This document shows, one piece after another, positions 46,569 through 63,451 of a stretch of DNA of 64,000 nt. How positions within the stretch are numbered: position 1 is the stretch's first letter; every line of letters begins with the position of its first letter. The DNA comes from an uncultured delta proteobacterium (GTDB lineage Bacteria; Desulfobacterota; Binatia; UBA9968), in NCBI GenBank assembly GCA_963760795.1, contig CAVXEP010000004.1, positions 96,001 through 160,000 of the forward strand, written 5' to 3'. Under the pieces are notes generated by a model. The model worked only from the letters and a program-made list of their open reading frames with translations, had not been told where the DNA came from and did no database searches. A program made the translations under genes and the position numbers.

Positions 46569-46968
46569 CTGCAACCGGCCTCACTCATTACAACTAGTAT
46601 ATTTTTAACGGGATTTCGAGTCTGGGGCACGGCGGGCCGAGGCCCCCGGTGCAAAAGTTCAATGGTTCAAGCGTTCAAGCACAGCCGGGATAACGGCTGA
46701 GGATTCTGAAACATAGGTTCAGCCTGGCAAGGAGCAAACTACGGAAACCAGCCTCGAAAAAAAGTCTCCCGTTACTGCATCGATATCACAATCTGTGACC
46801 TTGAAACGCGGCGAAAACATTAACTATCTACCCGGCTTTTCTTCAACAGCTGTCGTGATTGCATGGGGTCCTGGGTCCTATTTAAGAAATTTGCTCGAAA
46901 AATTATGACGTTGCATATCTGAGCCGGTGTGCTAGCTTCCCACTTCCTAATGAAAGGGAGTTACCAAT

Positions 46969-47521
46969 ATGTCACATATTAGGCCCCTTCCCGTAGACGA
47001 TGCACCGCCGGAAGTACGAGATACTTACAACGATTTTTCCCGCAGGATGAATTTTCCTTCGCCGCCTAATTTCATCATGACCCAGGGGCATGCTCCCAAT
47101 GTAGCTAGAGGGACTTGGGATCTTGTGCGCAACGTGCTCGTGACCGGCAAAATTGAGCGCTGGATCAAGGAAATGGTTTTTGCCGCAATTTCACAGGATC
47201 GCAACTGTCATTATTGTACCGCGGCCCATCTTGCGTGTTGCCGGATGTTGGGCGTAGATCCCGTCTTTCTGAATTCTTTAGTGCGCGACGTCAATTCGCT
47301 TAGCGATGCGAAACTGCGCGATATGATTTTGTTTGGCCTAAAATGCTCCAGAGACCCGCAAAGCATATCTAAAACCGACTACGCACATGCTGGGCCACCA
47401 CGGACTCGGTCAGCCTGAGATATTGGAATTGATCGCAATGTCCGGCTTGGCTGTGTATGCGAATATTATGGCCGATGCCACCGGCATGGAAGCGGACGCC
47501 ATGTTTGCCAGTCTTTCGTAA
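46969..47521 (+). CDS. AhpD/carboxymuconolactone decarboxylase family protein (frameshift near 47386)
   Basis: KEM..AIS..RNCHYCTAAH. C-terminus continues as L..HGL...EILELIAM..LAVYANI.ADA.G. Confidence 0.82.
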
Positions 47522-48182
47522 GGTAGTTTTCTGCGTGCTCTTTGCCGCCGGATCTTTAGTAAAAATTCTTCTGTGATATTGCTAGAACATGAAGTTCGAA
47601 AATGACCGAGGCGAGCCGGTGGAAATAAACTTTCAGAATTTCGAAAGTATATTGTCAACGGCCGAAGCCGGCTTCACTCGCGTGAAGCTTAAAGACGGGC
47701 AAGTAGTATCGGTGCAAGCGACGGAAAATGAAATTCTCGAAGCCACGGTGGAAGAATAGGCATGCCGCGCGCGAGAGTTTTCCTTGAGAAATTGAGTTGA
47801 TTTTTTCCTCATTCTTCGCTGTTTCTGATTGACTGATCTTGCCTTGGCCCGGTTGCTTCGTCGTCGGTCGCGCCGTTTTTGCGCTGGTCACCTTTTTTCC
47901 TGCCATTATGTAAGCTCGCACTAGAGTTGCCTGGGGCTTAAGCGGTTACGGACGATATATTGATCCCTTTTCTAAAGCTCTCATTGTGGTACTTTTAGAC
48001 CATGGATGTGAAAACCAAAAATGCAGGCCGCCTGCGAAAAGTTAAACAAATTAAAGAGCCTGTAGAGGTCGAGGAGAAAACCGTTACACCCGGGCTCGAA
48101 AAAGTAGAGATTAAAAACCCGAGAAAACCGCCCGTAAAAGCACCGCGGCAGAAGTAGATAATTGGAATCCACCGCTGAAACC

Positions 48183-48321
48183 TGTGGAACGACTGGAACC
48201 GGGGTTTCGCGGTGTGCCGGGGTATATTGAACTTTTGAACCCTTGAACGGGTTCGTCCCCGCCTTCATCCCGCCCAAATCCGTCCTTGAACTTTTGAACC
48301 TTTGAACGTGGGTCAATCGTT
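48183..48321 (+). repeat. TGGAAC/TTGAAC composite repeat, copy 1, upstream of the DUF2283 gene
   Basis: ggaacgactggaac..gccggggta.attgaacttttgaac..tttgaacgtgggtcaatcgtt, shared with copy 2. Confidence 0.8.
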
Positions 48322-48338
48322 TGGAAGGACAAATCCCC

Positions 48339-48646
48339 ATGAAGATCGAATACGATACCGCGCACGATCTACTAAACATCGAGTTTCTGGCCAACGTTAC
48401 ATCGAGTTTCTGGCCAACGTTGCCATCGACGACTCGCTGGAGATCGATGGTGTAGTCATCGACTACGCAAAAGACAAGCGCATCGTCGCCATCGAAGTGC
48501 TCGATGCGAGTAAGCGAACGACGCGCAAGCCTTTCGACCTTACGAACCTGGCCATCGTGAAGTCTACCGGGTCGGATACCGTGCCGGAAAGCGAGGAGAA
48601 GTACGGCAAAAAGCGGCCGGACAAGTCTAAACGTCGCCGCTCATGA
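48339..48646 (+). pseudogene. DUF2283 family protein disrupted by a 23-bp tandem duplication
   Basis: MKIEYD..DLLNIEF..GVVIDY..RIVAIEVLDASKR. ACATCGAGTTTCTGGCCAACGTT occurs at 48376-48398 and 48399-48421. Confidence 0.8.
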
Positions 48647-48665
48647 TCGAAGTAAAAATAATGGC

Positions 48666-48812
48666 TTGAACGATTTGAACGGGCCGATCTTCTATGGTTT
48701 TGAACGACACGTCGCGGTTGAACGTTTGGAACGACTGGAACTGATGGAATCGGGGTTGCGAGAGGAGCCGGGGTAATTGAACTTTTGAACTTTTGAACGT
48801 AGGTCAATCGTT
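48666..48812 (+). repeat. TGGAAC/TTGAAC composite repeat, copy 2, upstream of vapBC
   Basis: ggaacgactggaac..gccggggtaattgaacttttgaacttttgaacgtaggtcaatcgtt. Confidence 0.8.
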
Positions 48813-48868
48813 GAGAGTCTTGAGCTGGTTTGTAGTACACTGCTGTATCACATGGTGGAGTCGTGTTT

Positions 48869-49135
48869 ATGCCTTTGAGCGTTCGCTTAGATCAAAAGAC
48901 CGAGTCCTTGATCGGACGGTTGGCTCGCAGGAGACGACAGACCAAATCGGAAGTTATTCGGGACGCGATCGGTGTGCTCGCCAAACAGGAAGAGACGGGC
49001 GCGGTGAAAACGCGCCCTTATGAACTGGTGGCTCATCTGATTGGCTGTGTCAAAGGCGGACATCGGGATCTTTCCGTAGATGCGAGCAAGAAGGTCCGAG
49101 AAATGCTTGTCGAGCGAGCCCGCAAGCGTCGATGA
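48869..49135 (+). CDS. RHH/CopG antitoxin (VapB-like)
   Basis: LSVRLD..LAR..TKSEVIRDAI. ATGA overlap with the PIN gene. Confidence 0.88.
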   Translation: MPLSVRLDQKTESLIGRLARRRRQTKSEVIRDAIGVLAKQEETGAVKTRPYELVAHLIGCVKGGHRDLSVDASKKVREMLVERARKRR

Positions 49136-49542
49136 TCCTTGTCGACGCAGGGCCGCTGATCGCCCTCATACACCAAGACGACAATCAACATGAGCGTTGT
49201 CGAGACGCCTTTGCCGCGCTCGACGAGCCGCTCGGCACGGTGTGGCCCGTAGTCACCGAAGCCCTGCACCTTTTGAATTTTTCTTGGCGCGCCCAGGATG
49301 CACTTTGGGAGATGATCGCGACCGGCGCGATAGCAATCATGCCGTTAGCAATCGAGGACGTCCCGCGCATTAGAGAATTGATGCACAAGTACCGCGATTT
49401 GCCGATGGATCTGGCGGACGGTGCCTTGGTTCGCGTCGCCGAGCGCGAACGGTTGCGGCGAATCTTCACCCTCGACCGTCGTGATTTTCAGGTTTATCGG
49501 CCCGCTCGGCTCGGTCGCTTTGCGATCATACCGGCCCGGTAA
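49132..49542 (+). CDS. PIN-domain toxin (VapC-like)
   Basis: ILVDAGPLIA, VVTEA, KYRDLPMDLADG, IFTLD.RDF. Confidence 0.92.
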   Translation: MILVDAGPLIALIHQDDNQHERCRDAFAALDEPLGTVWPVVTEALHLLNFSWRAQDALWEMIATGAIAIMPLAIEDVPRIRELMHKYRDLPMDLADGALVRVAERERLRRIFTLDRRDFQVYRPARLGRFAIIPAR

Positions 49543-49674
49543 CTTTCAAGTAGCGCGCTCGATATCTCTGATCCGCTGCTGGCAATAGACGCCAGTCCTC
49601 CGAATCTGACCTTGAACGCTTGAACCCTTGAACCTTTGAACGAGCCTTTAGGTTTACGGACCAGACTAGGATGT

Positions 49675-49690
49675 ACATCAATATTGATGT
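49675..49690. promoter_or_regulatory. Perfect 16-bp palindrome, probable HigA operator
   Basis: ACATCAATATTGATGT ends 9 nt before the toxin ATG. Confidence 0.65.
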
Positions 49691-49699
49691 TGCGGTCAC

Positions 49700-50053
49700 A
49701 TGGATTTCATAGTAGAGTTTTACGAAACAACGGCGGGAAAGTGTCCGGTGCGGGAGTTTCTGCTGGAACTCAAGGCCAGCGATCCCGGCGACTTTGCAGC
49801 GGTGACAGCGGGGTTGGAGAAACTGCGCCATCGCGTGTATCACCGCGAGCCGCTGACCAAGGCTCTGAACGACGGCCTGTTTGAGTTGCGCCACGTTGGC
49901 AAGTTGAACACGCGCGTACTGTGGTTCTTTATGAATGGCCGGCGCATCGTCGCAGTTCACGGCGTCCGCAACAAAGGCCAGTCGATCCTGGCTCGCGATT
50001 TCGACACCGCACGGGCACGGATGCGCGACTGGCAAGAAAGGAATGAGCGATGA
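49700..50053 (+). CDS. RelE/HigB (Gp49-like) toxin
   Basis: VEFYET..GKCPVREFL, EP..K.L.DGLFELR, RVLWFF. Toxin-first gene order. Confidence 0.88.
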   Translation: MDFIVEFYETTAGKCPVREFLLELKASDPGDFAAVTAGLEKLRHRVYHREPLTKALNDGLFELRHVGKLNTRVLWFFMNGRRIVAVHGVRNKGQSILARDFDTARARMRDWQERNER

Positions 50054-50424
50054 GCAAGACGAACTTTGATGTTTTTCTGGAAGAGCAACTCCGCGACCCG
50101 GATTTCGCGGCACGGTTCAAGCGGGCAGGCGAGGCGTGGGATGTGGCGTTGCAGATTGTGGCGCTGCGCGAGAAGGCCGGCCTCTCGCAAAAGGACCTCG
50201 CGCGCAAACTCAAGACTTCCCAGCAACAGATCAGCCGCCTCGAATCGCCGTCGTACGAAGGTCATTCGTTGAGCATGTTGCGCCGCGTCGCCAACGTCTT
50301 ACACGCGCGGGTGCGCGTGGAGTTCGAAACGGACAGCGACCCCGCGCATGTTGCCGAGAAAGCAGCGCCCTACGGCAAGACCGCCGTGAAGGCGCGGAGA
50401 TTACGACGCAAAGTACGTCTTTGA
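50050..50424 (+). CDS. XRE HTH antitoxin (HigA-like)
   Basis: LREKAGLSQKDLARKLKTSQQQISRLES..SLSMLRRVA. Confidence 0.9.
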   Translation: MSKTNFDVFLEEQLRDPDFAARFKRAGEAWDVALQIVALREKAGLSQKDLARKLKTSQQQISRLESPSYEGHSLSMLRRVANVLHARVRVEFETDSDPAHVAEKAAPYGKTAVKARRLRRKVRL

Positions 50425-50490
50425 TCACCGGTAGTCTCCCGGTGTAAATGCGCGGTTGCCAGGGCGCGAATCCGATGGCAATGTGGCACC

Positions 50491-50691
50491 GTGAAGACAT
50501 TGGCTGAAATCGAACGTGCCGTCGAAGAATTGCCGTCGGGGCAAAAGACAGAGTTGCTGCTTTTCGTTGCGCAGCACCTGCGCGAGGAACAAGCGCCGTT
50601 GCCCGAGCCGCGGGATTTTTCCGATGAGCAGCTTCGGGCTTGGATGGACAAGGATGAGGAGGCGATGCGCCGTTTCCGATCCGGCGCGTGA
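50491..50691 (+). CDS. Small hypothetical protein resembling orphan antitoxins
   Basis: KTLAEIERAVEELP..LL pattern typical of small TA-associated proteins. Confidence 0.6.
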   Translation: MKTLAEIERAVEELPSGQKTELLLFVAQHLREEQAPLPEPRDFSDEQLRAWMDKDEEAMRRFRSGA

Positions 50692-50749
50692 ACCTATTCC
50701 TGGCTGCCAGTGCGGTTCCACCACAGTTCAGTCGGAGGCTACGAGCAGA

Positions 50750-51558
50750 ATGCCAAGAACAAAAGAGAGACCGGGGGTTGACGCTTATTTCGATGCAATG
50801 CAGCGGATTTTCAACTTGCAGTCGGAAATCCTTACGGGTGTGTTACCGCACAACGCGGAGCGCGGGCGAAAGGATGAGGAGCGGTTCCGAGATTTTCTAA
50901 GCAAAGTGCTCCCCAAAAGTATAGTGTTGGCACGGGTTTCATAATCTGCTCGGATCCGGAGATTCCGCTAAGCAACCAAACAGACGTTGTGATATTCGAC
51001 GAAATATCTAACTCTCCCTTACATAAAGAACTCTCGGCGTTTGTATATCCGGTTGAGATGGTTTACGGGGCGGTCGAAGTTAAAGGTGCTTTATGTTTCC
51101 AAGACCTCGAGAAAATCGCCATTGATATTCTAAAAATCAGAGAGTTAGCAGCGTACCGCTACTACATTACCTATGGGAGCAAACAAAAAGATGGCGGTTC
51201 CGAACATGAATTAGTAGTGGACCAAAACGAGTTTAACGTCCCTAGCCCTGCACCCAGAACATTTGTATTCGCATACTCGCAACGTGGATGGAAAAATATT
51301 GACGGGCTTGTAAAAAGCCTACAGCAAGTTTTGAAAAAAAACCCCGCGCACATCCACGGTCTCGTTGTGCTCGACAAAGGCTGGTACCTTAACCAGGAAG
51401 CGTATTCCTCAACAGGACATGAGTTCTTCGCCTACACCGACAATGCGCTCTTACGTTTCATCAACGATATGCTGCACGCTATTTCGAGTATGGGAATGTT
51501 TCAAGCCTCAATTGATCGATATCTTCGTCTCAAGTTGCCTTTGAAGAAGCGAGATTGA
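50750..51558 (+). CDS. DUF6602-like putative PD-(D/E)xK nuclease (frameshift near 50915)
   Basis: H.AERG..DEERFRDFL..VLP..YSVGTGFI..SNQTDVVIFD..YPVE.VYGAVEVK. Lower GC than the flanks. Confidence 0.75.
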
Positions 51559-51636
51559 CTAGCGAGCCAAGCTTTTCGATGTCGCCCAGAATTATTCCCC
51601 ATTCAGGGTCAGCGTAGGAGGTCGGGCCTGAGTATA

Positions 51637-51843
51637 GTATTGACTAATTGCCAAAACGTCGGGGGAAATTTCCGTAATACAGTTGGTTTTTTAAGCGAAT
51701 AAACCTCCGAGGGTCAGGTCCCCAAACTTGCAAGCGTAGAACCTATCTGTCTGCTTGCTGTTGAAAACAAAAGTTTTCTGAGCGCAAAACAGAGTGACCC
51801 GAGACACTGTATTTGCCGATCTTTATACACCTGAGAGGATGCG
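51637..51843 (+). repeat. ~207-bp direct repeat, copy 1
   Basis: GTATTGACTAATTGCCAAAACGTC...GCTTGCTGTTGAAAACAAAAGTTTTCTGAGCGCAAAACAGAGTGACCCGAGACACTGTATTTGCCGATCTTTAT...GGATGCG, near-identical to 59073-59279. Confidence 0.92.
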
Positions 51844-52154
51844 TGCGACTCGTTGATGAGCAAGCCCTGCAAGAGCGCAATCTCAACCAGACATTGGCGC
51901 GATTGACAACTCGGCGGGCCAGCGATATTGCTCGGGCCAGAAAAAAAGGTGATTTAAATTTCCTATACAGATCGAGGACAGCTACGTCATCACGGACAAA
52001 GGCTGGAGCGCATCAGCAACGCGCCGCGAAAGGTCGAGGAGATCGAGGCGCTCATGAAGATACGCTCGCCGATAGTCGTCCCGTAACACCGGGAAACCGC
52101 ACCGCTGAGCGGTTGGACGACTTTGCGACGTCCGTCGAGATGAAGGAGGCATGT

Positions 52155-53729
52155 ATGGACGCTCGCGGAACCGCTGCGCCGGCGATCGATATCGATCGGA
52201 TCACGGCGGCGAGCGACCACGCAATCCACGATCTCGTCCGCTATCTCGCCGCACCTAGGCATCGGCCGCAACTCATGCAGCTCCTCGCCGACTCGCCGGC
52301 CTGGCTCATCGCGAAATCGCGCCGGCTCGGCGGCGACCAGTCGGTATTGGAGGACGTGCAGATCGCGATCGACAGCTTTCACGATCCGCTCGCCACCGCG
52401 GACGTTATCAACTTGCTCCGCCTATATGCGGTGCGGGGCGCGGTGCAACAGCGCGCGACCCAGCGTGAAGGCGGTGGGCTGGACAGGCTCGTCGCGTCGG
52501 GCCGGTTGACTGATGCGCTCGACGCGGCTCTCGTGCTGGCCGAACCAACCGAGAGGTTCGGCGCGCTCAAGATAATCTGGGCGTCGCTGACATGTCTGCC
52601 TGGTAGCTCGGCCGAGGCGCACGCAAACATTCTGCTCCACGCCGGCGATGCGGCCAACGAGATGCCGAACGAATTCTTAACGGGGCAGGACCGCGCCAAC
52701 GCACTAAGCTGGCTTATCGACGAGTTCCTCGCGCTCGGCGAAAACGACGCCGCGCACGAGACCCTCAAGCGAATGAGTCGTACGATTGGGGATCGCGAAG
52801 ACGCCGTTGTCCGTGTGTTAGTGGGTGACGCAAGAGCAGGCCGTCTCGACGCAGCGCTCACGTTAATCCCTGGGATCTACAACGTCTGGCAGGATAGCAA
52901 AGCGCGAACTGCGCTCGCTCGAGAGCTCTGGCTCGCTCGGCGATACGACGACGCGCTGAAGCTTAGCGGGGAGGTGGGGGCGTTCGTTCGGACGCGGGTG
53001 CTCGCCGCGATCATCGAGGTGTTCGACACTCGCGATGTCAGTACGAGACAGCCATTGCTCGACGACGCACTCGCGACTGGCCGTGCGATTCCGCCGATCC
53101 CCGATACCGAGACCGAAAATCCATGGGATCTGAAGTGTGCCGGCCTTCGGTCGCTCGCCAACGCGCTAGCGTCGATTGGCGACTTTGCTCGCGCGCGAAT
53201 TGCCGCCGACGAGATTCCGCACATCGTCGACTCGGCGTTAACGTGGAGCGATGTCGCCGCCACAGCGCGCCGCGCGGGCAATCACGCCCTTGCCCGAGAG
53301 CTCCTCAATGCCGCGAAGGCCGCCGCAGAACACCTGCGTAACCGCGACATTCACGCGAAGCTCGCCCTTGCACTAGCGGCGGAACTCTCCACGCCTCTCG
53401 ACGTCAGGTTTAGCCTCACTGACGTCCTCCAGGCTCTCATCGGCGAAGGACGATCCACAATGGCACTTGACCTGATCGAGTCCAGCGTGAGCGGCGATCG
53501 CGATCAATTGATCAACCGGGCATTGCAGGCGACGACATGGTCCGAGCCGGAGCGACGTCGCCTGACGCAGATCGCCGCAAGCAATGGCGCCTTCAAGAGC
53601 CTCAACGTCGGCACTGCGGTCGAACACCCAACCCCGGAGCCTCGCGTGCAAAGTGCGGTCGACGTGACGCGGCGTCTCGCCGCGCTCGAGTCCCAGCATC
53701 GCGACGCTCGTGAGCGTCCAGCTCAATGA
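52155..53729 (+). CDS. Helical-repeat (TPR-like) protein with a STAND helical-domain-like N-terminus; possibly the 5' part of one ~1050-aa gene
   Basis: AAGGAGG then ATG 52155. Repeated 'A..AA..I..R..AL..LA.ALA..G' units. Confidence 0.72.
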   Translation: MDARGTAAPAIDIDRITAASDHAIHDLVRYLAAPRHRPQLMQLLADSPAWLIAKSRRLGGDQSVLEDVQIAIDSFHDPLATADVINLLRLYAVRGAVQQRATQREGGGLDRLVASGRLTDALDAALVLAEPTERFGALKIIWASLTCLPGSSAEAHANILLHAGDAANEMPNEFLTGQDRANALSWLIDEFLALGENDAAHETLKRMSRTIGDREDAVVRVLVGDARAGRLDAALTLIPGIYNVWQDSKARTALARELWLARRYDDALKLSGEVGAFVRTRVLAAIIEVFDTRDVSTRQPLLDDALATGRAIPPIPDTETENPWDLKCAGLRSLANALASIGDFARARIAADEIPHIVDSALTWSDVAATARRAGNHALARELLNAAKAAAEHLRNRDIHAKLALALAAELSTPLDVRFSLTDVLQALIGEGRSTMALDLIESSVSGDRDQLINRALQATTWSEPERRRLTQIAASNGAFKSLNVGTAVEHPTPEPRVQSAVDVTRRLAALESQHRDARERPAQ

Positions 53730-55314
53730 GAGAGCGCAAGCACTACTCGGGGAGGTGGGGTGCATAGGCGAGAGCGCGACCAACGACACCATTCGGCTGG
53801 ACACGATTCGAATCCTCATGCGGTTCGATCGCGTCGATCAGGCGCTCCGCTTGATCCGACCCGACAAAAAGGACGAGGAGTTAGAGACGGTCGTGGGTAA
53901 CGCAGTCGATGCGGGGCGATGCACGCAAGCCATTCACATCATCGATCAGATTGGCAATCCCGCGACACACGACATCATGGTCGAGCGCATCGTCGAGCGG
54001 CTGATTGCAATGCGCCGATTCGACGACGCGATATCCGCCGGCCGTGCCGCGTCGACCTCCCTCTTCGAGCCGATGGGGCGCGTCGCGTGGAACCTCATTC
54101 GCTCTGGAGAGGTGACTCGCGGATACGAGCTCGCCAGGTCGCTCGAGGGCAATCACGTGACTGGTTCGGTGGTGGCTCTCCATGCGGTCGGCCGCCCCGA
54201 CCTCGCTCGCGAGCTGGCCGAGAAGTGCCTACGAGAGGCTCCGGGCGATCTCGAGCTCTTCGTCCAAGCACTGGCGGGCGAAGGGCTCTACCGCGAGGCG
54301 CTCACGCTGGCGCAACGACACACGGTTGGCCAGATTCGCGATCAGACGATGGCGCACATCGCGATCAGCGCCGCGTCGGTAGACGAGTTCGAGTTCGCGC
54401 TGTCTGCGGTGCGAGATATGACGAGTCGCAGAGATCAGGACAGGGTACTGCAATCGGTCGTCGCGGGACTTCAGCGTTTGGGTCGCTCGCGCGAGGCGGA
54501 GGCGATCGCCGATACGATGGCCGACTCCGGAAGGAGAGACGCGGGACTTCAGGGCCGGCCGATGCTACTCCCCGGTGCATCGATGAGCCTCTGGCTCGAC
54601 AGTGGATTACTCGCGTACATCCGTTACTCGGCCCGCAGTTTCGCGGTAGCGATGCGCGTGCCCAGGCTCACGGAACTCTCGCGCGCCTATGCCGCCGTGG
54701 GTGATTTCGCGTCCGCCATAAATGTCGCGAGAGACATTGCCAACGGTGCGGCGCAGGCTGATGAGCTGCAGCGCCTCGCCGAGCAGCTTGCGTCGCTAGG
54801 CCGGTTCGACGAAGCGTTGGCGCTGGCGCGCGACATTGGGCCCGCAATGTCGCGAGCCTTGCAGCTCCAGGGCCTGCCGCCCGGCGAGGCCGAAGTGACA
54901 GCAAATTTGACAGTCCTGTCGGATACCGCGGAGCTCGACCCCGCATCAGGCAGAGTAAACTTTCCCGACCAGATCGTGACCGCTCTCGCGGGGATCGCCA
55001 TTGCGATCCGCGAAGCTGGGCGCGCGGTGGAAGCTGAAGCAGTGGTGGCCGAAGCGCGCCGCGTTGCGACCGTGCATGAGCTCTCGGACGAGACCTTGCG
55101 GCGATTTGCTCGCGCTCTCGCTGCGCTGGACCGCTGGAGCGAAGCTATGCGTACACTCCCTGCGCATGACGCCTACGCGTTTGCGCTCGAAGTGCACGCG
55201 CTTCACGATCTGCTGAATCGATTGCAGCCTGGTCTGGCGCTCGACGCAACGAACGCGGTCACGCGTATAGCCGGGTGGTTCGACGAAACCTGGAAGGATC
55301 TCGTTGCCGCATGA
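53710..55314 (+). CDS. Helical-repeat (TPR-like) protein; possibly the frameshifted continuation of 52155..53729
   Basis: Repeats such as 'LASLGRFDEALALARDI'. No clear RBS before the GTG. Stop overlaps the next ATG. Confidence 0.7.
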   Translation: MSVQLNERAQALLGEVGCIGESATNDTIRLDTIRILMRFDRVDQALRLIRPDKKDEELETVVGNAVDAGRCTQAIHIIDQIGNPATHDIMVERIVERLIAMRRFDDAISAGRAASTSLFEPMGRVAWNLIRSGEVTRGYELARSLEGNHVTGSVVALHAVGRPDLARELAEKCLREAPGDLELFVQALAGEGLYREALTLAQRHTVGQIRDQTMAHIAISAASVDEFEFALSAVRDMTSRRDQDRVLQSVVAGLQRLGRSREAEAIADTMADSGRRDAGLQGRPMLLPGASMSLWLDSGLLAYIRYSARSFAVAMRVPRLTELSRAYAAVGDFASAINVARDIANGAAQADELQRLAEQLASLGRFDEALALARDIGPAMSRALQLQGLPPGEAEVTANLTVLSDTAELDPASGRVNFPDQIVTALAGIAIAIREAGRAVEAEAVVAEARRVATVHELSDETLRRFARALAALDRWSEAMRTLPAHDAYAFALEVHALHDLLNRLQPGLALDATNAVTRIAGWFDETWKDLVAA

Positions 55315-56891
55315 GCAGTCGCCAGCCTCGCGTGTTCGTTTCACACACTGTTCGCGACGAACGCGATCGGGCGCTCGCCCACGGAATCGCCGACGCCCTG
55401 CAGGCACGCGGGAGCAAGGTCTGGATCGCACCGGAAAGTATTCCGGCCGGCGACGATTGGGAGGAGGCGATCGTCGCTGGTGTGCTCGATGAGTGCACGC
55501 ATTTTCTCGTCATTCTGTCGGCGGCGTCGGTAAGATCGAAATGGGTCCAGGCTGAGATCGAGCTCGCGCGGCGGCGCGCGAAGAAGTCTGCTCGGTTTCG
55601 GGTGCTTCCCCTTCGCGTCGGCGATCTGAAACGGTTTCCCAACGAGAAGTATCTCGGTACGCTGCAGGCCGTCCGCTACGAGGCGATTCTCGATCAACAG
55701 GTGCAGGCCATCGCCGACGCGATCGGTCTCGTCCCGGCGCTGCCGGCGTCACACCTAGACCTTGAGGATGACCACGGCGGTGGGTTCGTCGGGCGCGATC
55801 ATGCGTTCGCCGCCATCGATCAGTTCACGACGAGTCGCGCGAAGGGATACTTCACCATCGTCGGTGATCCGGGCGCCGGGAAGAGCAGTATTCTCGGCGA
55901 GCTGGTTCGGAGAACTGGGTGCGTCGCGCACTTCAACAGTCACGCGTCTGCCATTACGACGACGCGCCAGTTCGAGGAGAGCATCTGCCGTCGGCTCGAG
56001 GTGCGTTTCGACATCCACCCGCTCGTGGCGAGCACCGCGCACCACGATGGCGAACGGCTTCGGGTCTTCCTCAAAGGCGCAGCCGAGAAAGTCGCGCGAC
56101 GTGGTGAACGACCGCTCGTTATCGCCGTCGATGCGTTGGATGAGGTGTCCGACGTAGTGCCTAACGGGCCGAATACGTTGCTGTTGCCGCAGGTCATGCC
56201 TGACGGCGTCTACTTCATCATGACGCGCCGCCGCCTAACGCTGCCGCTCGTGTCGATATCGCCGCAGACCGTCTGGGACCTGAGCGATTTCCCACAGGAA
56301 AACCGGCGGGACATCGAAGTGTACTTTCGAGCGGCCGCAAAACGCCCAAAGGTTCGGAAGTGGATCGAGTCCAGCCGCGGGCAGCTTGGAGACTTCCTCG
56401 ACACGCTGGTTGCCAAGAGCGAGCTGAATTTCATGTACGCGCATTATGTGGTGCAGGCGATCGAGAGCGAAGCCTATGAGGATGCACGACTTGACGCATT
56501 GCCGACGGGGCTCCGCGGCTACTACGAGGCCCACTGGGCACGAATGGGAATGCTCGCTTCGCCACTCCCGCGAGAGAAAATTCGAATCATCTACGCGCTC
56601 TCCGAGATCGCGCGTCCGGCATCGGTGGTGGAGATCAGCAGGTTTGCGAGCGATGACACGATAACCATCGATCCGCTGCGGGTCTCGGAGCTGTTGCGGG
56701 AGTGGAGACCCTTCCTCCATCAGGAAGGCACTGGAATAGCCGGGCGGTTCGGCATCTATCACGAGAGCTTTCGAGACTTCCTTCGCCAACAGGAAGTGGT
56801 TCAAGCAGCTGGCATATGGCTCGACGATGTGAGAGACCGCATCGTGGGGAGCCTTTGGGAGGAAGTGGCGGGCCACAAGGCCCCCTCGTGA
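55311..56891 (+). CDS. TIR domain + STAND-type P-loop NTPase + winged helix, with no C-terminal sensor
   Basis: TIR VFVSH..S..S.WVQAEIE, FVGR, Walker A GDPGAGKS, Walker B IAVDALDE, LP.GL..YY, YHESFRDFL. Confidence 0.88.
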   Translation: MSSRQPRVFVSHTVRDERDRALAHGIADALQARGSKVWIAPESIPAGDDWEEAIVAGVLDECTHFLVILSAASVRSKWVQAEIELARRRAKKSARFRVLPLRVGDLKRFPNEKYLGTLQAVRYEAILDQQVQAIADAIGLVPALPASHLDLEDDHGGGFVGRDHAFAAIDQFTTSRAKGYFTIVGDPGAGKSSILGELVRRTGCVAHFNSHASAITTTRQFEESICRRLEVRFDIHPLVASTAHHDGERLRVFLKGAAEKVARRGERPLVIAVDALDEVSDVVPNGPNTLLLPQVMPDGVYFIMTRRRLTLPLVSISPQTVWDLSDFPQENRRDIEVYFRAAAKRPKVRKWIESSRGQLGDFLDTLVAKSELNFMYAHYVVQAIESEAYEDARLDALPTGLRGYYEAHWARMGMLASPLPREKIRIIYALSEIARPASVVEISRFASDDTITIDPLRVSELLREWRPFLHQEGTGIAGRFGIYHESFRDFLRQQEVVQAAGIWLDDVRDRIVGSLWEEVAGHKAPS

Positions 56892-56997
56892 TGGAACACG
56901 CTTCACAACGTCAAGTCGCTCGGACCGTCCTGCAACAGCCCGAGCGACTTGACGGTCTTTCAATTGTCGTGCACAGCAGCTCAGCTCAACATATAAA

Positions 56998-57189
56998 TCA
57001 AAGAATCGCGTCATCCGTGCGTTGAAGTTCGGAGCCCGTTTGTGGGTCGTAGAGTATCACGGACCAGACGTCCTTGGCGGGCACACGATGCGCACTCGGT
57101 AGTTGCTTCAGTCCGCCCAGGTAGTTCCCGTCCTTGCCCTGTTCCGTAGAGGCATATTGCGAGCCCGCGCGCAACATCTTCGCCGCCAT
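56998..57189 (-). pseudogene. Fragment of a DUF1254/DUF1214-family gene
   Basis: GSQYA..DGNYL.G..VPAKD.WSV.LYDPQT..LQ remnant. Confidence 0.6.
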
Positions 57190-57231
57190 CGCGCGCGCGT
57201 TCAGAAAGGCGCCGGGGTCAGGCGTAGGTAT

Positions 57232-59072
57232 TGGTTCTGCTGAAAAACCCCTGAATTTGATTCGCGACCGCCGCTAGTAAACAGTGGTCATCGCCAAATA
57301 ATGTTACGCCAGAGAAAGTTTCACCCTCAACGAAGCCATAGCCAGGAAAATGAGCTGCGCTCCGCCCTTAAGCGGGGCTCAGAGGCGGCGTTCTCATCTG
57401 AAACGCGAGTAGATTTAGATATCGTTTTACGTTGCAAGCTGCACCTATGAAGTAATTCGATAAACCGACCCGGCTTAAGCCCCGATATTTCGTCCGTCTC
57501 ATCGCGTGCCCACGCACCAACTCGCTGTGGGTTCCCTCAATCCCGTTTCTCGGATGCATGGATTTGGAGAAACCTTTCTGTTTCATTTCTCTGCGCCGCT
57601 GCTCGACCAGATCATGGCGCAGTCCAACGACCAAAGTTCTCCGTCCACTCTTGGACCGCGTACATTGCTTTTGTACCGGACAGCTATTGCATTGATTGCC
57701 CCACTCGATGCGATAGTACTCGGTTCCCATATAGTTATCTTTGATGCGGCTGCACTGCGTGCTGAGCTTGCCCTGAGGACAAACCGCCTGGCGCTCGTTG
57801 ATATCGACATGGAACGCATCGCTATTGTAGGGTCCCTTGTGAGGATCGGGACGCGTCGGTCCTAATAACTCCATGCCGTTTTGTTCCGCCTGCGTTAAGG
57901 TGTGCTCGGTCACATAACCTGCATCGGTGTAGATCGCCCGGGGTTCGATCTCATGGTGCGCTTGTTCTCTTGTGAGCGTCTCGGTCAAGCCAGCCTTCTC
58001 GTCCTGGGCCGCTTCGACGGTCAGCATCTCGGTGATGAAATGGTCGGTGGGCTCGCCCTTTTTCTTGATCGGTTGTTGAGGATCGACAGTCTCGGTTACA
58101 TGCACCTTGTAGCCGATCCATTGCTTGCTCCTCTTATCGGCATAATGCGCATCGGAATCATGGGGGTTCTGCACCGCGCGAGGCGGTCGCTTGGGGGCGA
58201 GCTCAAGCTTTCCGTCGACCATCTCAAACTGCTCGCCAAAGACTCGCCGCAATAGTTTCACTGCTTCACGTCCAGCGAGCTTAGGATCGTTTCCGTCTAG
58301 CCACTCCAGCAGCTCTCTCATGTCTTGCCCACACTGCCGATAGCGGCGGTCGCGCTCGGTCTTGTTTAGCCGCCAATCCAGTTTGCTCTCTACATACAGT
58401 TCCCACAACCTGTCCCAAAATTCTGGCTGCTTTTTCCTCCCCACTTTTACTTTCAAATCCTCCAACGCCAAGCGCAGCGTCTCTATCGCGCACTCCAACA
58501 AGCTCATCGCCTTGACGTACCCCACGATATGCGTGCTATCGAGCCGCTGCTTGCCCTTTCTCTTCACCAATCCCAGCTCCACCAGCAACTTAACTATCCC
58601 GTCAAAGATCATCCGCTCGACTTTGTTGTCTTCCAACCGGTCGCGAAAATAAACTAACACCGTGGCATGAAACCCGGCGTAATCCAGTTCCAGATCTAAG
58701 GCGTACTTCCAACCCAGATGATACACCACGCGCTCGGTGGCCGAGCGATCTGCTGCTTTCTCCATGAACTGGAGCAGCGTCACTCCGCAAAGTAGCACCG
58801 GATCGATCCCCGGCCGGCCGTTCTCGGCGCAATACAACGCTTCAAGTTTCGGGGAAAGCTCTAAAAGCTTGGGCCAGATCTTTTCCCGAAACAACCGGTA
58901 GCGATTGGCTGGACCGAAAAGATCTCCAGCAAGATAGTCGGTATGATAAAAGCTTCTCTGTGCAGCGACGGCTCTTACGCTCATGAGAAAACGATGAAGG
59001 CGATATCGTCGCTTGTCAACGTAGATTTAACTGAACAAACAAAAAACTTGAGGGGGTTTTTCAGCAGAACCA
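57232..59072 (-). mobile_element. IS1182-family insertion sequence (1841 bp)
   Basis: Terminal inverted repeats TGGTTCTGCTGAAAAACCCC and GGGGTTTTTCAGCAGAACCA. 4-bp target duplication GTAT at 57228-57231 and 59073-59076. Confidence 0.9.
57368..58984 (-). CDS. IS1182-family DDE transposase
   Basis: GRPGIDP (DUF772-like), QRLDSTH, GYKVH, DAGY, CPQGK..C..C...C, R.GIEGT.SEL. Confidence 0.93.
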   Translation of the reverse strand: MSVRAVAAQRSFYHTDYLAGDLFGPANRYRLFREKIWPKLLELSPKLEALYCAENGRPGIDPVLLCGVTLLQFMEKAADRSATERVVYHLGWKYALDLELDYAGFHATVLVYFRDRLEDNKVERMIFDGIVKLLVELGLVKRKGKQRLDSTHIVGYVKAMSLLECAIETLRLALEDLKVKVGRKKQPEFWDRLWELYVESKLDWRLNKTERDRRYRQCGQDMRELLEWLDGNDPKLAGREAVKLLRRVFGEQFEMVDGKLELAPKRPPRAVQNPHDSDAHYADKRSKQWIGYKVHVTETVDPQQPIKKKGEPTDHFITEMLTVEAAQDEKAGLTETLTREQAHHEIEPRAIYTDAGYVTEHTLTQAEQNGMELLGPTRPDPHKGPYNSDAFHVDINERQAVCPQGKLSTQCSRIKDNYMGTEYYRIEWGNQCNSCPVQKQCTRSKSGRRTLVVGLRHDLVEQRRREMKQKGFSKSMHPRNGIEGTHSELVRGHAMRRTKYRGLSRVGLSNYFIGAACNVKRYLNLLAFQMRTPPLSPA

Positions 59073-59279
59073 GTATTGACTAATTGCCAAAACGTCAGGG
59101 GAAATTTCCGTAATACAGGTGGTTTTTGAAGCGAAGAAAGTTCCGAGGCACAGGTGTTGAAACTTGCAAGCGTGGAACCTCTCTGTCTGCTTGCTGTTGA
59201 AAACAAAAGTTTTCTGAGCGCAAAACAGAGTGACCCGAGACACTGTATTTGCCGATCTTTATGTACCTGCTAGGATGCG
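59073..59279 (+). repeat. ~207-bp direct repeat, copy 2
   Basis: Near-identical to 51637-51843. The IS is inserted at its 5' edge. Confidence 0.92.
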
Positions 59280-59444
59280 GCGAGCCAATTTTGTCGATCA
59301 TCGCGGCTGCGGCCGCCGTTGAAAGGATCCCTGCTCGGTCGGCAAATCATTGTCAAAATTGTCGCTAGTGATACAACTATCGACTGAGCGGTGACGCAGC
59401 AACCCTGACACAGAAAACTTGGAGTGCAAACAGTGGAGTCGTCC

Positions 59445-60789
59445 ATGGTGCGAGCGAAAGCGATCTACTTTATCAACCAGTTTTTCGCCGGTGTCGGCGG
59501 TGAAGACAAAGCCGACCACGCGCTTGAACTTCGGCGGGAAGCGCTCGGCCCGGCCAAATATTTTCAGGAGTTGAGCAGGGATTCCGTCGATGTTGTTGCG
59601 ACGGTTTATTGCGGCGACAACTACTTCGCCGACCACTCGAGCGCGGTGGTCGAGGCAAGTCGTCGAAGCCGTCCGTAGCAACGGCGCGACAATTTTTATT
59701 GCCGGCCCGGCGTTTGGCTCCGGGCGCTATGGTTATGCCTGTGTCGAGCTCTGCCACCATGTGACCACTGCCACGGGAATCCCTTGCTTGAGTGCAATGG
59801 CGTTGGAGAATCCCGGGGTGGAGCTGTATCAACAATACAAGGATCGGCAGGTTTATCTCTTGCCCACCGGCGAAGCGGTCTCCGGTATGAGGGATATGCT
59901 GGCGCGCATGGCGCGCTTCGCCAAGCGGTTAGCCGGTGGCACGGTCATCGGACCCGCTGTGGACGAGGGATACATCCCCCGTGGCATACGCGTCGCTGCC
60001 CTAGCGCCGAAGCGTGGGGTGGAGCGCGCGGTCGATATGATGTTGGCGAAGGTTGCCGGGAGAGATTTTGTCAGTGAAATCCCGATCGAAACCGTTGAGC
60101 AGACGCCCATTGCCGCGCCGATCGGCAATCTCAAACAGGCCCGGCTGGCGTTGGTCAGTACCGCCGGCGTAGTGGCGCCGGGCAACCCCGACGGTTTCAA
60201 AACCAATGGCAACACGCAGTGGCGCAAGTATGCCGTCGGACAGATCGACTCGATGACCGATGCGCCCTGGGACGTGTGGCATGGCGGCTACAACACGGTG
60301 TTCATGCACGACAATCCCAACTACGGCGTGCCGCTGGATAGCTGCCGCGAATTCGAGCAGGCCGGCGGCATCGGCAAAGTCCATCCCTATTTTTATTCCA
60401 TCCCCGGCTCTTTCGGCCAAATATCGATCATGCAAAACATCGGCAAAGAGATCCTGCGCGACATGAAGGAGGAAGGCGTCAGCGGCGCGCTGCTGGTGTC
60501 GACCTGAGGGACCTGCACTCGCAGCGGCGCTGCGATCGCGCGGGAAATCGAACGGGGCGGTATTCCGGTTGCGCATATCACTTCCATGGCCGAGCTGGCC
60601 AAGCAGATGAAATCGAAACGCATCGTCATCGGCACCAAGATCCCGCACCCATGCGGCGATCCCAACTTGCCGCCGGACGCGGACCAGGCGCTGCGGCGCG
60701 AGATCGTCGCCACCGCGCTCAAAGCTCTGCAGATGGACGTCGAGGGGCCGGAGACTTTCAAGCCGGCAATCTCCTACACTTCGGGATAG
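59445..60789 (+). CDS. GrdB-like selenoprotein 2 (1-nt insertion near 59655; Sec TGA at 60505-60507)
   Basis: NQFFAGVGGED, AGPAFGSGRYG.AC, HGGY, ALLVST-TGA-GTCTRSGA..IPHPCGDP, in frame to TAG 60789. Confidence 0.9.
60519..60535 (+). promoter_or_regulatory. SECIS-like hairpin, GrdB-like gene 2
   Basis: Perfect TCGCAGC-GGC-GCTGCGA stem. Loop G is 19 nt after UGA, as in locus 1. Confidence 0.75.
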
Positions 60790-60797
60790 GCTGCGCT

Positions 60798-62106
60798 ATG
60801 CGATTGGAACTGGTCAGCTTTCCAGTAACGATGGTGCGCCGTGGCACGCAGACGCGTTATCAAAACGGCGCGTTGGAAATCGACATCGACGATCTGTCGG
60901 CGCTGGTGCTGTCCGACCCGAAAGTGGCGAGCGCCGACCTCGACATCGCTTTCCCCGGCGAGAAGACGCGCATCGTGCGCGTGCGCGACGCCGTCGAACC
61001 GCGCATCAAAGTGGCTGGGCCGGGCGCGGTTTTCCCCGGTATCCTGGGACCGGTGGAAACGGTTGGCGAGGGGCGGACGCATCGGCTTGCCGGGCTCACC
61101 GTCATCGCCTCGGCGGAATATGAGCGGACGATTTTCGAAGGCACCGCAGCGGGCCGCACCGGCCTGGTCGACATGTGGGGCCTGGCGGGCGAGCTGACGC
61201 CGTTCGGCTCGACGATCAATATTGTCCTCAAGATCGAGCTGCGCGGCGGTATTTCCGAATTAGAAGCCCATACGGCTATTCAACTGGCGGAGTTGCGGCT
61301 CGCGCGCGCGTTGGCGGAGACGACCCGGGAGTTAACGACTAAAGATGTCGAAGTGTTCGAAACCGGCGCTGCCGATCCGTCGTTGCCGCGGGTTGTTTAC
61401 GTTCTCGGCTGTCGCACGGCGTGGCACGAGCCCCATTCCGGTGTCGCGCTGTACGGCTTGCCGATCCGCGAGTCGTTTCCGACGCTCCTCCATCCCAATG
61501 AATTTCTCGACGGCGCCTTCACTTCCGACGCGCGGCGCGGCGGCCGCGGCACCTTTCCCAGGTACCTGGTATTGGATGAATCAGCCGGTGGTATTGCAGC
61601 TGCTGCGCGAGCATGGCAAGCGGCTCAATTTCCTGGGCGTGATCCTGCAGCGCACCCGCTTCGAGAGCGACTTCGGCAAGCAGGTGAGCGCCATGGCGGT
61701 GTCACAAATGGCCAGGATGCTCCACGCCGACACCGCTCTGATCACTCGCACCGGACCGTCGGGCAACAATTTCATCGACACCATGATGACGCTGCAGGCC
61801 TGCGAGAGTAAAGGAGTGAAAACGGTGCTGCTGACGCCGGAATGGGGCGGCCGGCAAGGCACCGAGCTGCCGCTGATGTTTTACGTCCCCGAGGCGACGG
61901 CGATGGTGACCACCGGCAGTCTGGATCGGCTGATCGACTTTGCCGCGCCGGACAAAGTCATCGGCGCGGGCGATACTCGCGTCGTCGAAATTGCCACCGG
62001 CGATCCGCCCATCGAGCCGGCGACCGCGTTCGTCGGCGACATGAGCTATTTACAGGACGGCATCGACTGGTGGGGCGAGTCGCGCCAGTATTGCGCGGTT
62101 TATTGA
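60798..62106 (+). CDS. GrdE-like subunit, paralog 3 (1-nt insertion near 61562)
   Basis: MRLELVSFPV, RDAVEPRIK..GEGRTHRL and HPNEFLDGA, then TWYWMNQP..GNNFID..YCAVY* in the next frame. Confidence 0.87.
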
Positions 62107-62211
62107 AAGCGAACAGGCGCGGGCGAATATCCCGCAAAGGCGCCAAGATGCAAAGTTGCAAAGTTCGCTGTGCGCGAACGACACGAGTGTCAATACATAA
62201 CGAGGTGAACG

Positions 62212-63231
62212 ATGTTGAGGACCCTTGACGCCGCTAAATCTTGGTGCGCCCTCTCGCTATTTGCGTCCTGCTTTTTGTCTTTCGCCGGCCATGCCGTCGG
62301 CGCCGAGAAAATCACCGCGATCTATTCTTCCTATTCGGTGTCTTATTCTCTCCCGTGGATCGCGCGCGAGGCCGGTTTGTTTCGCAAACATAATGTCGAC
62401 GCCGATCTGGTTTACATTCCATCATCGGGCATCGCCACTGCGGCTTTGCTCAGCGGCGAAGGCGATGTCGCGTTGGCTGGGGGCGTGGGGTTTGTCCGGG
62501 CCTTTGCTCAGGGCGCCACCGATTTGGTCTTCATCGGCAGCTTCAAAAATTTTCTCACCTTCGCCGTCATGGGCAAAGCCGAGCTGCAAAAACCGGAAGC
62601 GCTCAAAGGCAAGCGGGTCGGGGTCACGCGCTTGGGCAGCAATAGCCATTATTTTCTGCTGCAGCTCCTGCGCAAGGTCGGCTACGAGCCCGGTCGCGAC
62701 GTCACGATCCTGCAAATTGGTTCCGAGAACGAAGTGTTCGCCGCTCTGGCAAACGGCGCCATCGATGCCGGCGTCGTGCCGCCGCCGCTCGACGCGCGCG
62801 CCGTCGCTCAAGGCTTTCGCTATGTTTATGCCGCTTTCGGCCCTGAACAAGGGATTCCCTATCCCGCGGCAAATATTGTCACGCGCCGCTCGCTGTTGGA
62901 AAAACGCTCGGCGATCTTCACACCGTTCATGCGCGCCCTGGGCGAGGCATCGAAAATTTTGCACACCGATCGCGAATTTTCCTACAAAGTGTTCGAAAAA
63001 CTTTTCCGGGTGAGCGACCGCAAACTGGTTGAGCACGCTTACAATGCAGAGATCAAAGTCATGGAGCGGCGCTTCGATATCAGCACAAAAGCGATCCAGG
63101 CGGTGCTCGACGATGCGGCGAAGACCGATCCCAAAGCCGCCAAAGTCAACGTCGCGGATATGATCGATCGGCGCTATCTCGACGAAATGGACAAAAGCGG
63201 TTTCTTCAATCGAGTCTGGTCGGGAAAATAG
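62212..63231 (+). CDS. NitT/TauT substrate-binding protein (Grd-like locus 2)
   Basis: Signal peptide. WIAREAGLFRKHNVD and LKGKRVGVTRLGS motifs. Confidence 0.9.
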   Translation: MLRTLDAAKSWCALSLFASCFLSFAGHAVGAEKITAIYSSYSVSYSLPWIAREAGLFRKHNVDADLVYIPSSGIATAALLSGEGDVALAGGVGFVRAFAQGATDLVFIGSFKNFLTFAVMGKAELQKPEALKGKRVGVTRLGSNSHYFLLQLLRKVGYEPGRDVTILQIGSENEVFAALANGAIDAGVVPPPLDARAVAQGFRYVYAAFGPEQGIPYPAANIVTRRSLLEKRSAIFTPFMRALGEASKILHTDREFSYKVFEKLFRVSDRKLVEHAYNAEIKVMERRFDISTKAIQAVLDDAAKTDPKAAKVNVADMIDRRYLDEMDKSGFFNRVWSGK

Positions 63232-63437: not shown

Positions 63438-63451
63438 TATCATATATGATA
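63438..63451. promoter_or_regulatory. Perfect 14-bp palindrome, probable TA operator
   Basis: TATCATATATGATA just upstream of the toxin ATG. Confidence 0.65.

Follow-up and report, generated by a model that had tools for sequence, protein, structure and literature searches.

A TIR–STAND NTPase and a separately encoded helical-repeat protein as probable halves of a two-protein NLR-like receptor in an uncultured member of the Binatia

In the genome of an uncultured delta proteobacterium (GTDB lineage Bacteria; Desulfobacterota; Binatia; UBA9968), we examined a small operon in which a TIR–STAND NTPase is encoded directly downstream of a separate, large helical-repeat protein, called the sensor here after its probable role. 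The window, meaning the whole stretch of DNA that was analyzed, comprises 64,000 nucleotides (nt) of the forward strand of contig CAVXEP010000004.1 (positions 96,001 to 160,000; GenBank assembly GCA_963760795.1), and coordinates given below without a prefix are positions in it or, where a related locus is named, in that locus. The sensor is written in two open reading frames (ORFs), ORF1 and ORF2, which together encode 1058 amino acids (aa) and are followed by the NTPase gene (Table 1). The assignment of 52155 as the start of the sensor is supported by the Shine-Dalgarno-like motif that lies just upstream of its ATG.

Table 1. Features of the two-protein locus and its surroundings, in window coordinates
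Feature	Position	Strand	Basis or remark
RHH + PIN pair	48863-49542		Pfam/PADLOC scans
Gp49/HigB-like + HTH pair	49700-50424		Pfam/PADLOC scans
Weak DUF6602 / PD-(D/E)xK match	50989-51558	+	Pfam/PADLOC scans
Shine-Dalgarno-like AAGGAGG, 5 nt ahead of sensor ATG	52143..52149	+	Read from sequence
Sensor part 1, ORF1, 524 aa: adaptor domain and helical repeats	52155..53729	+	Homology, AlphaFold2, Foldseek
Sensor adaptor domain, about residues 9-150, homologous to APAF1_C / HD2-like helical domain of fused STAND proteins	52179..52604	+	Homology
Zone of reading-frame change between ORF1 and ORF2 (real frameshift or assembly error)	53668..53729	+	Frames, stops, relative P0111
Sensor part 2, ORF2, 534 aa, GTG start: TPR-like helical repeats	53710..55314	+	Weak TPR matches
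TIR + STAND NTPase gene, 526 aa	55311..56891	+	ATG overlaps upstream ORF2 TGA as ATGA
TIR domain, residues 8-124, holds Glu82	55332..55682	+	Pfam TIR_2, E 3.4e-20
Walker A GDPGAGKS, residues 185-192	55863..55886	+	Sequence and homolog alignment
Walker B VIAVDALDE, residues 270-278	56118..56144	+	Sequence and homolog alignment
Winged-helix motif YHESFRDFL, residues 483-491	56757..56783	+	Sequence and homolog alignment
NTPase C-terminal helix, residues 504-521, predicted docking surface for sensor N-terminus	56820..56873	+	Models, conserved tail
20-nt inverted repeat, 90% complementary, 6-nt loop, 18 nt past NTPase stop	56909..56954	+	Repeat scan
IS1182-family insertion sequence, 338 nt past NTPase stop, not part of the system	57229..59075	-	23-nt inverted repeats, 96%

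The NTPase carries every landmark that the original prediction, made from the sequence without database searches, had named: a TIR domain with the string WVQAEIE, the Walker A and B motifs, the winged-helix motif and then, 35 residues further on, a stop codon, with no repeat region on the same chain. The ATGA coupling of its gene to the upstream ORF is likewise real. Glu82 of WVQAEIE, which we take to be the catalytic Glu from what is established about TIR NADases, is retained in 27 of the 28 alignment rows that have the TIR region, and the family profile matches structures of SPARTA TIR-APAZ, Cat1 and AbTIR. Across 37 aligned NTPase homologs, P187, G188, G190 and K191 of Walker A are invariant (G185 nearly so), as are D274, A275, L276, D277 and E278 of Walker B and Y483, H484, F490 and L491 of the winged-helix motif; the tail that follows is conserved up to its last residues. 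Among Pfam families, AAA_16 matches residues 159-280 (E 2.3e-9), the matches to nSTAND1 and NPHP3_N are weak, and homologs of the protein bear AAA_lid_TANC1 (PF25520). NACHT gave no match to the window NTPase at E <= 0.01, nor did NB-ARC match it; NACHT does match homologs P0034 and P0107 and, weakly, the NTPase of a related locus (L031), and one homolog, P0061, has NB-ARC. The Walker B residues D-A-L-D-E (274-278) fit the NACHT-type signature D[GAS]hDE as given in the relevant part of the preprint by Kibby et al. (10.1101/2022.07.19.500537). The structural model of the protein has a helix at residues 504-520 (pLDDT about 70), and its best Foldseek match is the plant TIR-NLR RPP1 (E 3.4e-11), with further matches to Apaf-1, SAMD9, ZAR1, CED-4, NLRP3 and Avs4. 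Judged by its motifs and its predicted fold, the protein belongs to the STAND NTPases.

The lack of a repeat domain on this chain is shared by many relatives. A homolog search among proteins of 289-921 aa, in which 8000 candidates were scored, gave 109 matches at E <= 0.001, and 58 of them (P0002-P0059) are built as TIR + NTPase like the window protein, with 39-66% identity and lengths of 482-624 aa; their sources are Streptomyces, Actinoplanes and many metagenomes. Given these 58 short homologs and the conservation of the C-terminus to its end, the stop codon of the window NTPase is not an error, and the short form is evidently native. In other homologs the same NTPase module stands behind effector-associated, trypsin-like, CHAT peptidase or HTH N-terminal domains, which is the swapping of effectors among homologs that had been proposed as a check. 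A search among proteins of 922-2630 aa gave only five matches to the NTPase, a scarcity that is weak evidence in this search. One of the five, P0223, is a clear fusion (1528 aa, 44% identical over 99% of the query), and its residues 540-667 align with the N-terminus of the separate sensor from locus L006. Fused forms of this NTPase family are, as far as these sequences indicate, rare.

The sensor had been described in advance as one or more ORFs with about 1050 aa of TPR-like repeats, and its size and its helical, TPR-like nature were borne out, while the plural was not: the two ORFs are a single sensor gene interrupted by a frameshift. The AlphaFold2 model of ORF1 is all-helical (mean pLDDT 84.2), and ORF2 has weak TPR matches (TPR_19, 26.2 bits against a cut-off of 25; TPR_14, 24.9 bits against 23.5). 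ORF1 and ORF2 share 20 nt but are read in different frames; the ORF2 frame opens after a stop 42 nt ahead of the GTG at 53710, and ORF1 stops at 53729. No ribosome-binding (Shine-Dalgarno-like) motif was seen before that GTG in the sequence as read. The nearest relative of the sensor, P0111, is a single protein of 970 aa, of which residues 1-432 align with ORF1 residues 16-456 (53% identity) and residues 518-967 with ORF2 residues 82-531 (57% identity), and since this one protein spans both ORFs we regard them as one gene. One base gained or lost within 53668-53729 would join the two frames.

What links the sensor to the NTPase is its N-terminus, which we call the adaptor domain. An exhaustive HMMER search with ORF1 against 1.84 billion representatives gave 111 non-self matches at E <= 0.001, and 108 of them go through the N-terminal ~150 residues of ORF1. 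In these 108 proteins the domain falls into distinct positions, standing at the protein's own N-terminus in 42 and 259-705 residues into the chain in 59 (median 453), with 7 between. Those with an internal adaptor domain that we sampled are single-chain STAND proteins by their Pfam matches: P0122 combines TIR_2, NB-ARC, APAF1_C and TPR; P0125 has HTH in front of NB-ARC, APAF1_C and TPR; and P0114, P0117 and P0130 have NPHP3_N, a TANC1-like lid and winged helix, and TPR, with HTH_TANC1 carried by P0117 and P0130. In the sampled fused proteins the adaptor-matched region overlaps APAF1_C (seen in P0114, P0122 and P0125) or directly follows it. Members of the N-terminal class, P0112 and P0118, have APAF1_C at residues 6-68 and TPR or PPR repeats behind it. 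A phmmer search with ORF1 residues 1-200 against PDB sequences found nothing meaningful, its one match having E 0.17. The N-terminal ~150 aa of the sensor are, on this homology, related by descent to the helical domain found after the winged helix in fused STAND proteins, a likeness that had been noticed from the letters and is now backed by 59 fused proteins and by the order of parts in P0117.

Indeed, fused P0117 aligns with both window proteins, and in the order expected of one chain. NTPase residues 158-491 correspond to P0117 residues 24-396, and ORF1 residues 3-173 to P0117 residues 420-583, which follow the NTPase-aligned part. The first alignment ends at the winged-helix motif, where YHESFRDFL pairs with IFHQSLRDYL, and the 24 residues of P0117 between the aligned parts correspond to the 35-residue tail of the NTPase. 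The original prediction had placed the cut at the boundary of winged helix and helical domain; the chain is divided after the winged helix as it stated, but the cut lies about 35 aa past the motif, so that one last helix is kept on the NTPase.

That last helix is where a predicted complex places the sensor. NTPase residues 140-526 and ORF1 residues 1-200 were modeled together, each with its alignment, and scored an ipSAE of 0.77 (0.77, 0.78 and 0.77 in separate runs) against 0.02 for the best of three controls, a mark that solved complexes attained in 58 of 80 cases and mismatched pairs in 2 of 110. Agreement between the runs covers at least 55% of contacts, and the partner has a pLDDT of 74 or more. 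With confidence the model brings NTPase residues 505-521 (the last helix) and 433-441 into contact with sensor residues 9-43, and sensor residues 50, 66 and 70 also take part in the modeled interface. The model, which had been proposed as a check on docking of the sensor N-terminus, supports binding between NTPase and sensor; what it displays is a likeness and not binding by these particular copies.

To see whether the pair occurs together elsewhere, we surveyed one genome for each of 185,579 species, which yielded 377 NTPase relatives; the best 80 matches represent 79 distinct loci, each taken with up to 8 kb of flank. An adaptor-domain profile was iterated on all ORFs of the 79 loci until convergence and then gave 102 domain matches in 72 of the 79, with 95 of the 102 starting within the first 100 residues of their ORF. 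Where at least 1500 nt follow the NTPase, an adaptor-bearing gene lies downstream on the same strand in 65 of 71 loci, and in 58 of those 65 the domain begins no more than 600 nt past the NTPase stop, mostly 30-50 nt. A same-strand upstream sensor, as in the window, occurs in only 5 of 79 loci (L004, L012, L013, L038 and L058), two of which, L012 and L013, are the closest matches to the window NTPase module among the best 80, at 49% identity. The usual order in the family is therefore NTPase then sensor, and the sensor-first arrangement of the window is a minority form; the reversed gene order that had been claimed is correct for this locus and does not characterize the family. Conserved pairing itself, proposed in advance as a check, is plain: the partner gene nearly always lies next to the NTPase gene, and a locus often has several copies of it. 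Filamentous cyanobacteria, actinomycetes and Chloroflexota are prominent among the sources of the family. A metagenome scan for the contig of the 66%-identical NTPase returned only two relatives, at 42-43% identity; the one hint at gene order in the closest relatives is that the intact sensor and the NTPase lie on contigs of matching length (9087 nt and 8626 nt). With 377 relatives in contigs from one genome per species, the split is no singular event, and by the sequences at hand it is the native, conserved state of a large, little-described family and not a one-off accident.

Many of these loci hold more than one candidate sensor. At least two distinct adaptor-bearing ORFs are present in 17 of 79 loci, and six loci have three or four. 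In 15 of 18 within-locus sensor pairs the adaptor is more conserved than the remainder, with two pairs equal and one lower; the clearest pair, in L004, has 83% identity in the adaptor and 33% in the remainder. Sensor bodies differ between loci in their Pfam content, with WD40 propellers in L007, L008 and L009 (the split sensor of L008 being APAF1_C + WD40), TPR in L012 and DUF3856 in L005, and with no known Pfam domain in the bodies of L006, L048 and L031. A tblastn search of the 79 loci gave one weak match for ORF1 (L031, E 2.8e-9) and none for ORF2, and we conclude from this nearly empty result that sensor bodies are too divergent for pairwise search.

Two of the loci deserve description in their own right. 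In L004 (9517-15533) one TIR-NTPase gene is followed by a tandem series of three sensor genes, of which the first and second form the pair just cited, and the upstream 955-aa ORF is itself a STAND NTPase with an adaptor domain in mid-chain. L012 (3068-13707), from the Anaerolineae, encodes in one direction a caspase + TCAD2 protein, a 1054-aa sensor and a 465-aa NTPase, so that effector, sensor and switch each have a gene of their own; next comes a single-chain protein with NACHT + HEAT.

Upstream of the sensor gene lie two toxin-antitoxin (TA) pairs and a putative nuclease (Table 1), the neighborhood that had been read from the letters. The nuclease-like ORF matches only the last half of either model (DUF6602 profile positions 54-103 of 104; PD-(D/E)xK model positions 72-123 of 123) and may be truncated or frameshifted; an ORF piece upstream of it (50717-50944) has no Pfam match. 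Short arrays of a TTGAAC-containing octamer, in direct and inverted orientation, flank the TA genes (46649-46684, 48227-48321, 48777-48812 and 49606-49655), and an exact 23-nt tandem duplication (48376-48421) lies inside a DUF2283-like ORF (48302-48646). Downstream of the NTPase gene, the inverted repeat is a possible transcription end; the terminator scan did not call it and it has no T run, and the promoter/terminator scan of 51500-57300 gave nothing above shuffled expectation. Between this hairpin and the left end of the insertion sequence (IS) is a 63-aa ORF on the minus strand (56998-57189), without a Pfam match and possibly what is left of a gene that the IS interrupted. The IS has matches to DDE_Tnp_1_6 and DUF772 in Pfam and to transpos_IS1182 (E 6.6e-78).

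A 208-nt direct repeat, 91% identical, occurs at 51636-51843, upstream of the sensor gene, and at 59072-59279, directly after the IS; a third, partial copy lies just beyond the window (G000:C4:160286-160424). The genome has no copies beyond these three, which all fall within 13 kb, and each precedes a plus-strand gene or operon, namely the sensor, a gene for GrdB (glycine/sarcosine/betaine reductase selenoprotein B) and a 358-aa ORF. The left part of the repeat is common to copies 1 and 2 and the right part to copies 2 and 3. The idea that it extends to the left of the IS and brackets just the two genes was tested and dropped, since it does not so extend. Rfam has no match at E <= 0.1 anywhere in 47000-64000, and the repeat is thus not a known RNA. 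The GrdB gene (59424-60789, plus strand), 2.5 kb further on from the NTPase, has an in-frame TGA (60505-60507) that reads as selenocysteine in the motif VSTUGTC, and it is cut by a frameshift, with Pfam GRDB positions 2-68 in the ORF at 59424-59678 and positions 67-347 in another frame, in the ORF at 59590-60507.

GC content is 0.60-0.655 within the operon and 0.46-0.58 in the flanking DNA. The genome has one copy of the system, and two other weak TIR matches in it (G000:C3:120929-121177 and G000:C32:195957-196247; E 2e-5 and 3e-5) come without the NTPase module. The system was not found at E <= 1e-10 in 40 relatives, 24 of them of the same genus, whose genomes are 60-100% complete. The locus is, in this genome, an accessory island acquired by horizontal transfer.

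The best explanation for the pair, and in our judgment a likely one, is a two-protein NLR-like (STAND) receptor. The two-protein split had been proposed from the letters, and it draws support from homology, from the same order of parts in P0117, from the pairing in 65 of 71 loci and from the complex model. In such a receptor the 526-aa protein would hold the effector (TIR) and the nucleotide switch (P-loop NTPase, lid and winged helix) and end in one extra helix, and the sensor of about 1000 aa would consist of a helical domain in its first ~150 residues and a TPR-like solenoid in the rest. Going by the model, the N-terminal helices of the sensor would pack on the last helix and the winged helix of the NTPase and rebuild one NLR-like protomer, the adaptor completing its helical domain with that last helix. 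By analogy with Avs, Apaf-1 and plant TIR-NLRs, the binding of a trigger by the solenoid would release the NTPase, which would then exchange nucleotide, oligomerize and bring the TIR domains together, and the clustered TIR domains would consume or convert NAD+ and so halt the infected cell.

Several observations weigh against this explanation or against its bearing on the present copy. Pfam found nothing in ORF1 at E <= 0.01, APAF1_C included, and the link from ORF1 to APAF1_C was made through homologs. Foldseek had been proposed for both proteins, and it was informative for the NTPase, with RPP1, Apaf-1 and Avs4 among its matches, but the whole ORF1 model retrieved only generic TPR solenoids at TM-scores of 0.10-0.30. 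The complex may have scored well through likeness to solved STAND structures, because its partners are two halves of one chain in relatives. The adaptor profile was iterated on the same loci in which it was then counted; the first, non-iterated profile reached only 13 loci at E and domain-E 1e-4, and 52 domain rows at E 1e-3. The iterated profile matched none of the other ORFs of the window, not even TPR-like ORF2, a sign that it had not strayed into repeats. A same-strand downstream partner is missing in six of the 71 loci: the sensor is upstream in L012, divergent in L020, convergent in L031 and far away in L049, and L024 and L076 have none. Finally, this copy may be dead, because its sensor is split by the frameshift and an IS lies beside the operon.

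The last point is the substance of the strongest alternative, which keeps the same architecture and holds that the window carries a decaying, non-working remnant in which the frameshift is real and the IS insertion is part of the erosion. The state of the ORF1/ORF2 junction (different frames, a 20-nt overlap, no ribosome-binding motif seen before ORF2) speaks for decay, as do the single-protein form of P0111, an IS1182-family element so close to the NTPase stop and the half-matched DUF6602-like gene nearby. Single-base assembly errors are also a live explanation of the break, because GrdB is cut likewise at a place where the Pfam profile continues, and in a metagenome-assembled genome of 35 contigs its frameshift fits such errors equally well. 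Moreover, both halves of the sensor keep 53-57% identity to P0111 without internal stops, and the catalytic motifs of the NTPase are all intact. Contigs from three sequencing runs, each of which contains only 5-6% of sampled words, cover 52231-52638, 54566-55162 and 33 bases at 55547-55579, and the frameshift zone lies outside them. Either the assembly is wrong at one base or this copy is inactivated, and we regard decay as the less likely course, though a possible one. The finding itself would appear, from sequence comparison and modeling, to be real, widespread and mechanistically suggestive, whether or not this copy is broken, as it may be.

A second alternative accepts the pair and gives it another logic, the repeat protein being a constitutive inhibitor, chaperone or scaffold of the NTPase, with the trigger sensed elsewhere. 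CED-9 regulates CED-4 in such a manner; repeat-less, CED-4-like STAND proteins exist and are among the Foldseek matches, and the window data give pairing, not ligand binding. Three observations disfavor it: the partner has at its start the very domain by which NTPase and sensor are joined in single-chain relatives, it carries repeat kinds (TPR and WD40) that serve as sensors there, and tandem paralogs keep the adaptor and diverge in the body, as expected of specificity subunits. We therefore hold an inhibitor to be improbable. Rather less probable still is a signaling or developmental switch unrelated to defense, like the STAND transcription regulators, in which TIR would be merely an interaction module. 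The HTH or Trans_reg_C that replaces TIR in P0073, P0102 and P0107 fits such a switch, as does the abundance of the family in filamentous cyanobacteria, actinomycetes and Chloroflexota; against it stand the catalytic-type Glu in 27 of 28 TIR-bearing rows, alternative N-terminal domains that are mostly peptidases and effector-associated domains, two TA pairs next to the locus, and the failure to find it in the 40 relatives searched, a pattern typical of accessory defense genes. That the NTPase stops early through an error of sequencing or gene calling in what is a normal single-chain NLR is hardly credible despite the at least one probable indel error nearby in the assembly, given the 58 homologs of the same build and length from many sources, the upstream position of the partner in the window, which no read-through could join, and the 58 related loci in which the partner ORF starts right after the NTPase stop in a separate frame or with its own start.

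Within the two-protein receptor reading, a further step is more tentative, and we offer it as a serious possibility: one effector + NTPase chassis may take interchangeable sensors, plugged in by way of an adaptor that is constant at their N-terminus and completes the helical domain of the NTPase. If so, one death switch in a locus with two to four sensors would serve to guard against several triggers, a new specificity could arise by duplication or swap of the sensor gene alone, and prokaryotes would have in this family, through the splitting of one chain, an equivalent of sensor/helper NLR networks. Relatives of the L012 type, with the caspase also detached, would amount to an apoptosome-like machine in three genes. 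The usual description of a STAND/NLR receptor is of one fused chain with effector, switch and sensor, and a sensor that can be detached and has a constant adaptor would account for the diversification of specificity while the lethal module stays untouched. It would also offer a simple system in which to study how a helical domain signals to an NTPase, how one NTPase serves many sensors, and re-targeting by exchange of one gene.

PADLOC, which had been proposed as a check on novelty, assigned the locus to no named system beyond its TIR domain and matched no Avs model. Thoeris was considered and rejected: the only resemblance is at the level of domains, with matches to ThsB (E 1.4e-6 and weaker) and a ThcB4 score of 24.8 bits against a cut-off of 220. 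The ThsA-type partner carries a SIR2, SLOG or Macro domain, and none of these Pfam domains was found in the ten ORFs scanned between 48863 and 58984. Assignment to Avs was likewise rejected, as the window system is not a single chain and has no Avs match in PADLOC. Avs and other single-chain prokaryotic STAND defense proteins are surveyed by Lee et al. (Nature 2026, PMC13581612), and going by the part of that paper used here, Avs resembles the window system in its N-terminal effector, central STAND NTPase and large, mostly TPR-like sensor, with ligand-induced oligomerization expected of both. Unlike Avs, where all three parts are one chain, the window system has a separate sensor with its own adaptor, and many related loci have several. 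The sensor analysis described in that part of the survey kept only proteins with at least 400 aa C-terminal to the NTPase (34,990 of 178,641), and by this rule short forms like the window NTPase fall outside it; should separate encoding of sensors be common, some of the proteins outside that analysis may have sensors that it did not count.

Among eukaryotic systems and their bacterial relatives, Apaf-1 and the AP-ATPases, bacterial Apaf-1-like proteins included, share the order NTPase, winged helix, helical domain 2 and repeats, and fused relatives P0122 and P0125 carry the corresponding NB-ARC, APAF1_C and TPR; the window chain differs in being cut before helical domain 2, and its NTPase has no NB-ARC match. 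The plant TIR-NLRs RPP1 and ROQ1 likewise combine TIR, with a catalytic-type Glu, and a STAND NTPase, and RPP1 is the best structural match, but their leucine-rich-repeat (LRR) and post-LRR domains are on the same chain, and the likeness is one of architecture and fold at ~11-13% identity. CED-4 and the plant TIR-NB (TN) proteins are STAND proteins without repeats. Similar to the window NTPase, they are NTPase modules that have no repeat sensor of their own and depend on another protein; their partners (CED-9 and full-length NLRs, respectively) are not, however, the detached helical-domain-plus-repeat half of the same ancestral chain.

Closest in principle are systems that spread an NLR machine over several polypeptides of one operon, namely the bacterial CARD-NLR systems (PMC13236601) and those coupled through effector-associated domains (EADs; Kaur et al. 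2020, PMC7159879), as the relevant portions of these papers present them. There it is the effector that is detached and the sensor that is fused to the NTPase, LypB of the CARD-NLR system being an ATPase + TPR protein in that account (PMC13236601), whereas in the window system it is the sensor that is detached. Fungal NWD2/HET-S groups with such effector-in-trans STAND systems, and here too the window differs in detaching the sensor instead. The EAD likeness extends to individual genes, in that some relatives of the window NTPase carry effector-associated domains and L012 has its separate caspase + TCAD2 gene. In the literature searched by titles and the openings of abstracts, with supplementary neighborhood and clade tables outside that scope, we did not find a published description of a split between sensor and NTPase. 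The nearest printed statement found, in the portion of Kaur et al. (2020, PMC7159879) drawn on here, is one case of a TIR + AP-ATPase gene standing apart from TPRs that are fused to a vWA protein. What is probably new here, together with the two-protein receptor itself, is a sensor detached from its NTPase in a conserved two-gene STAND family.

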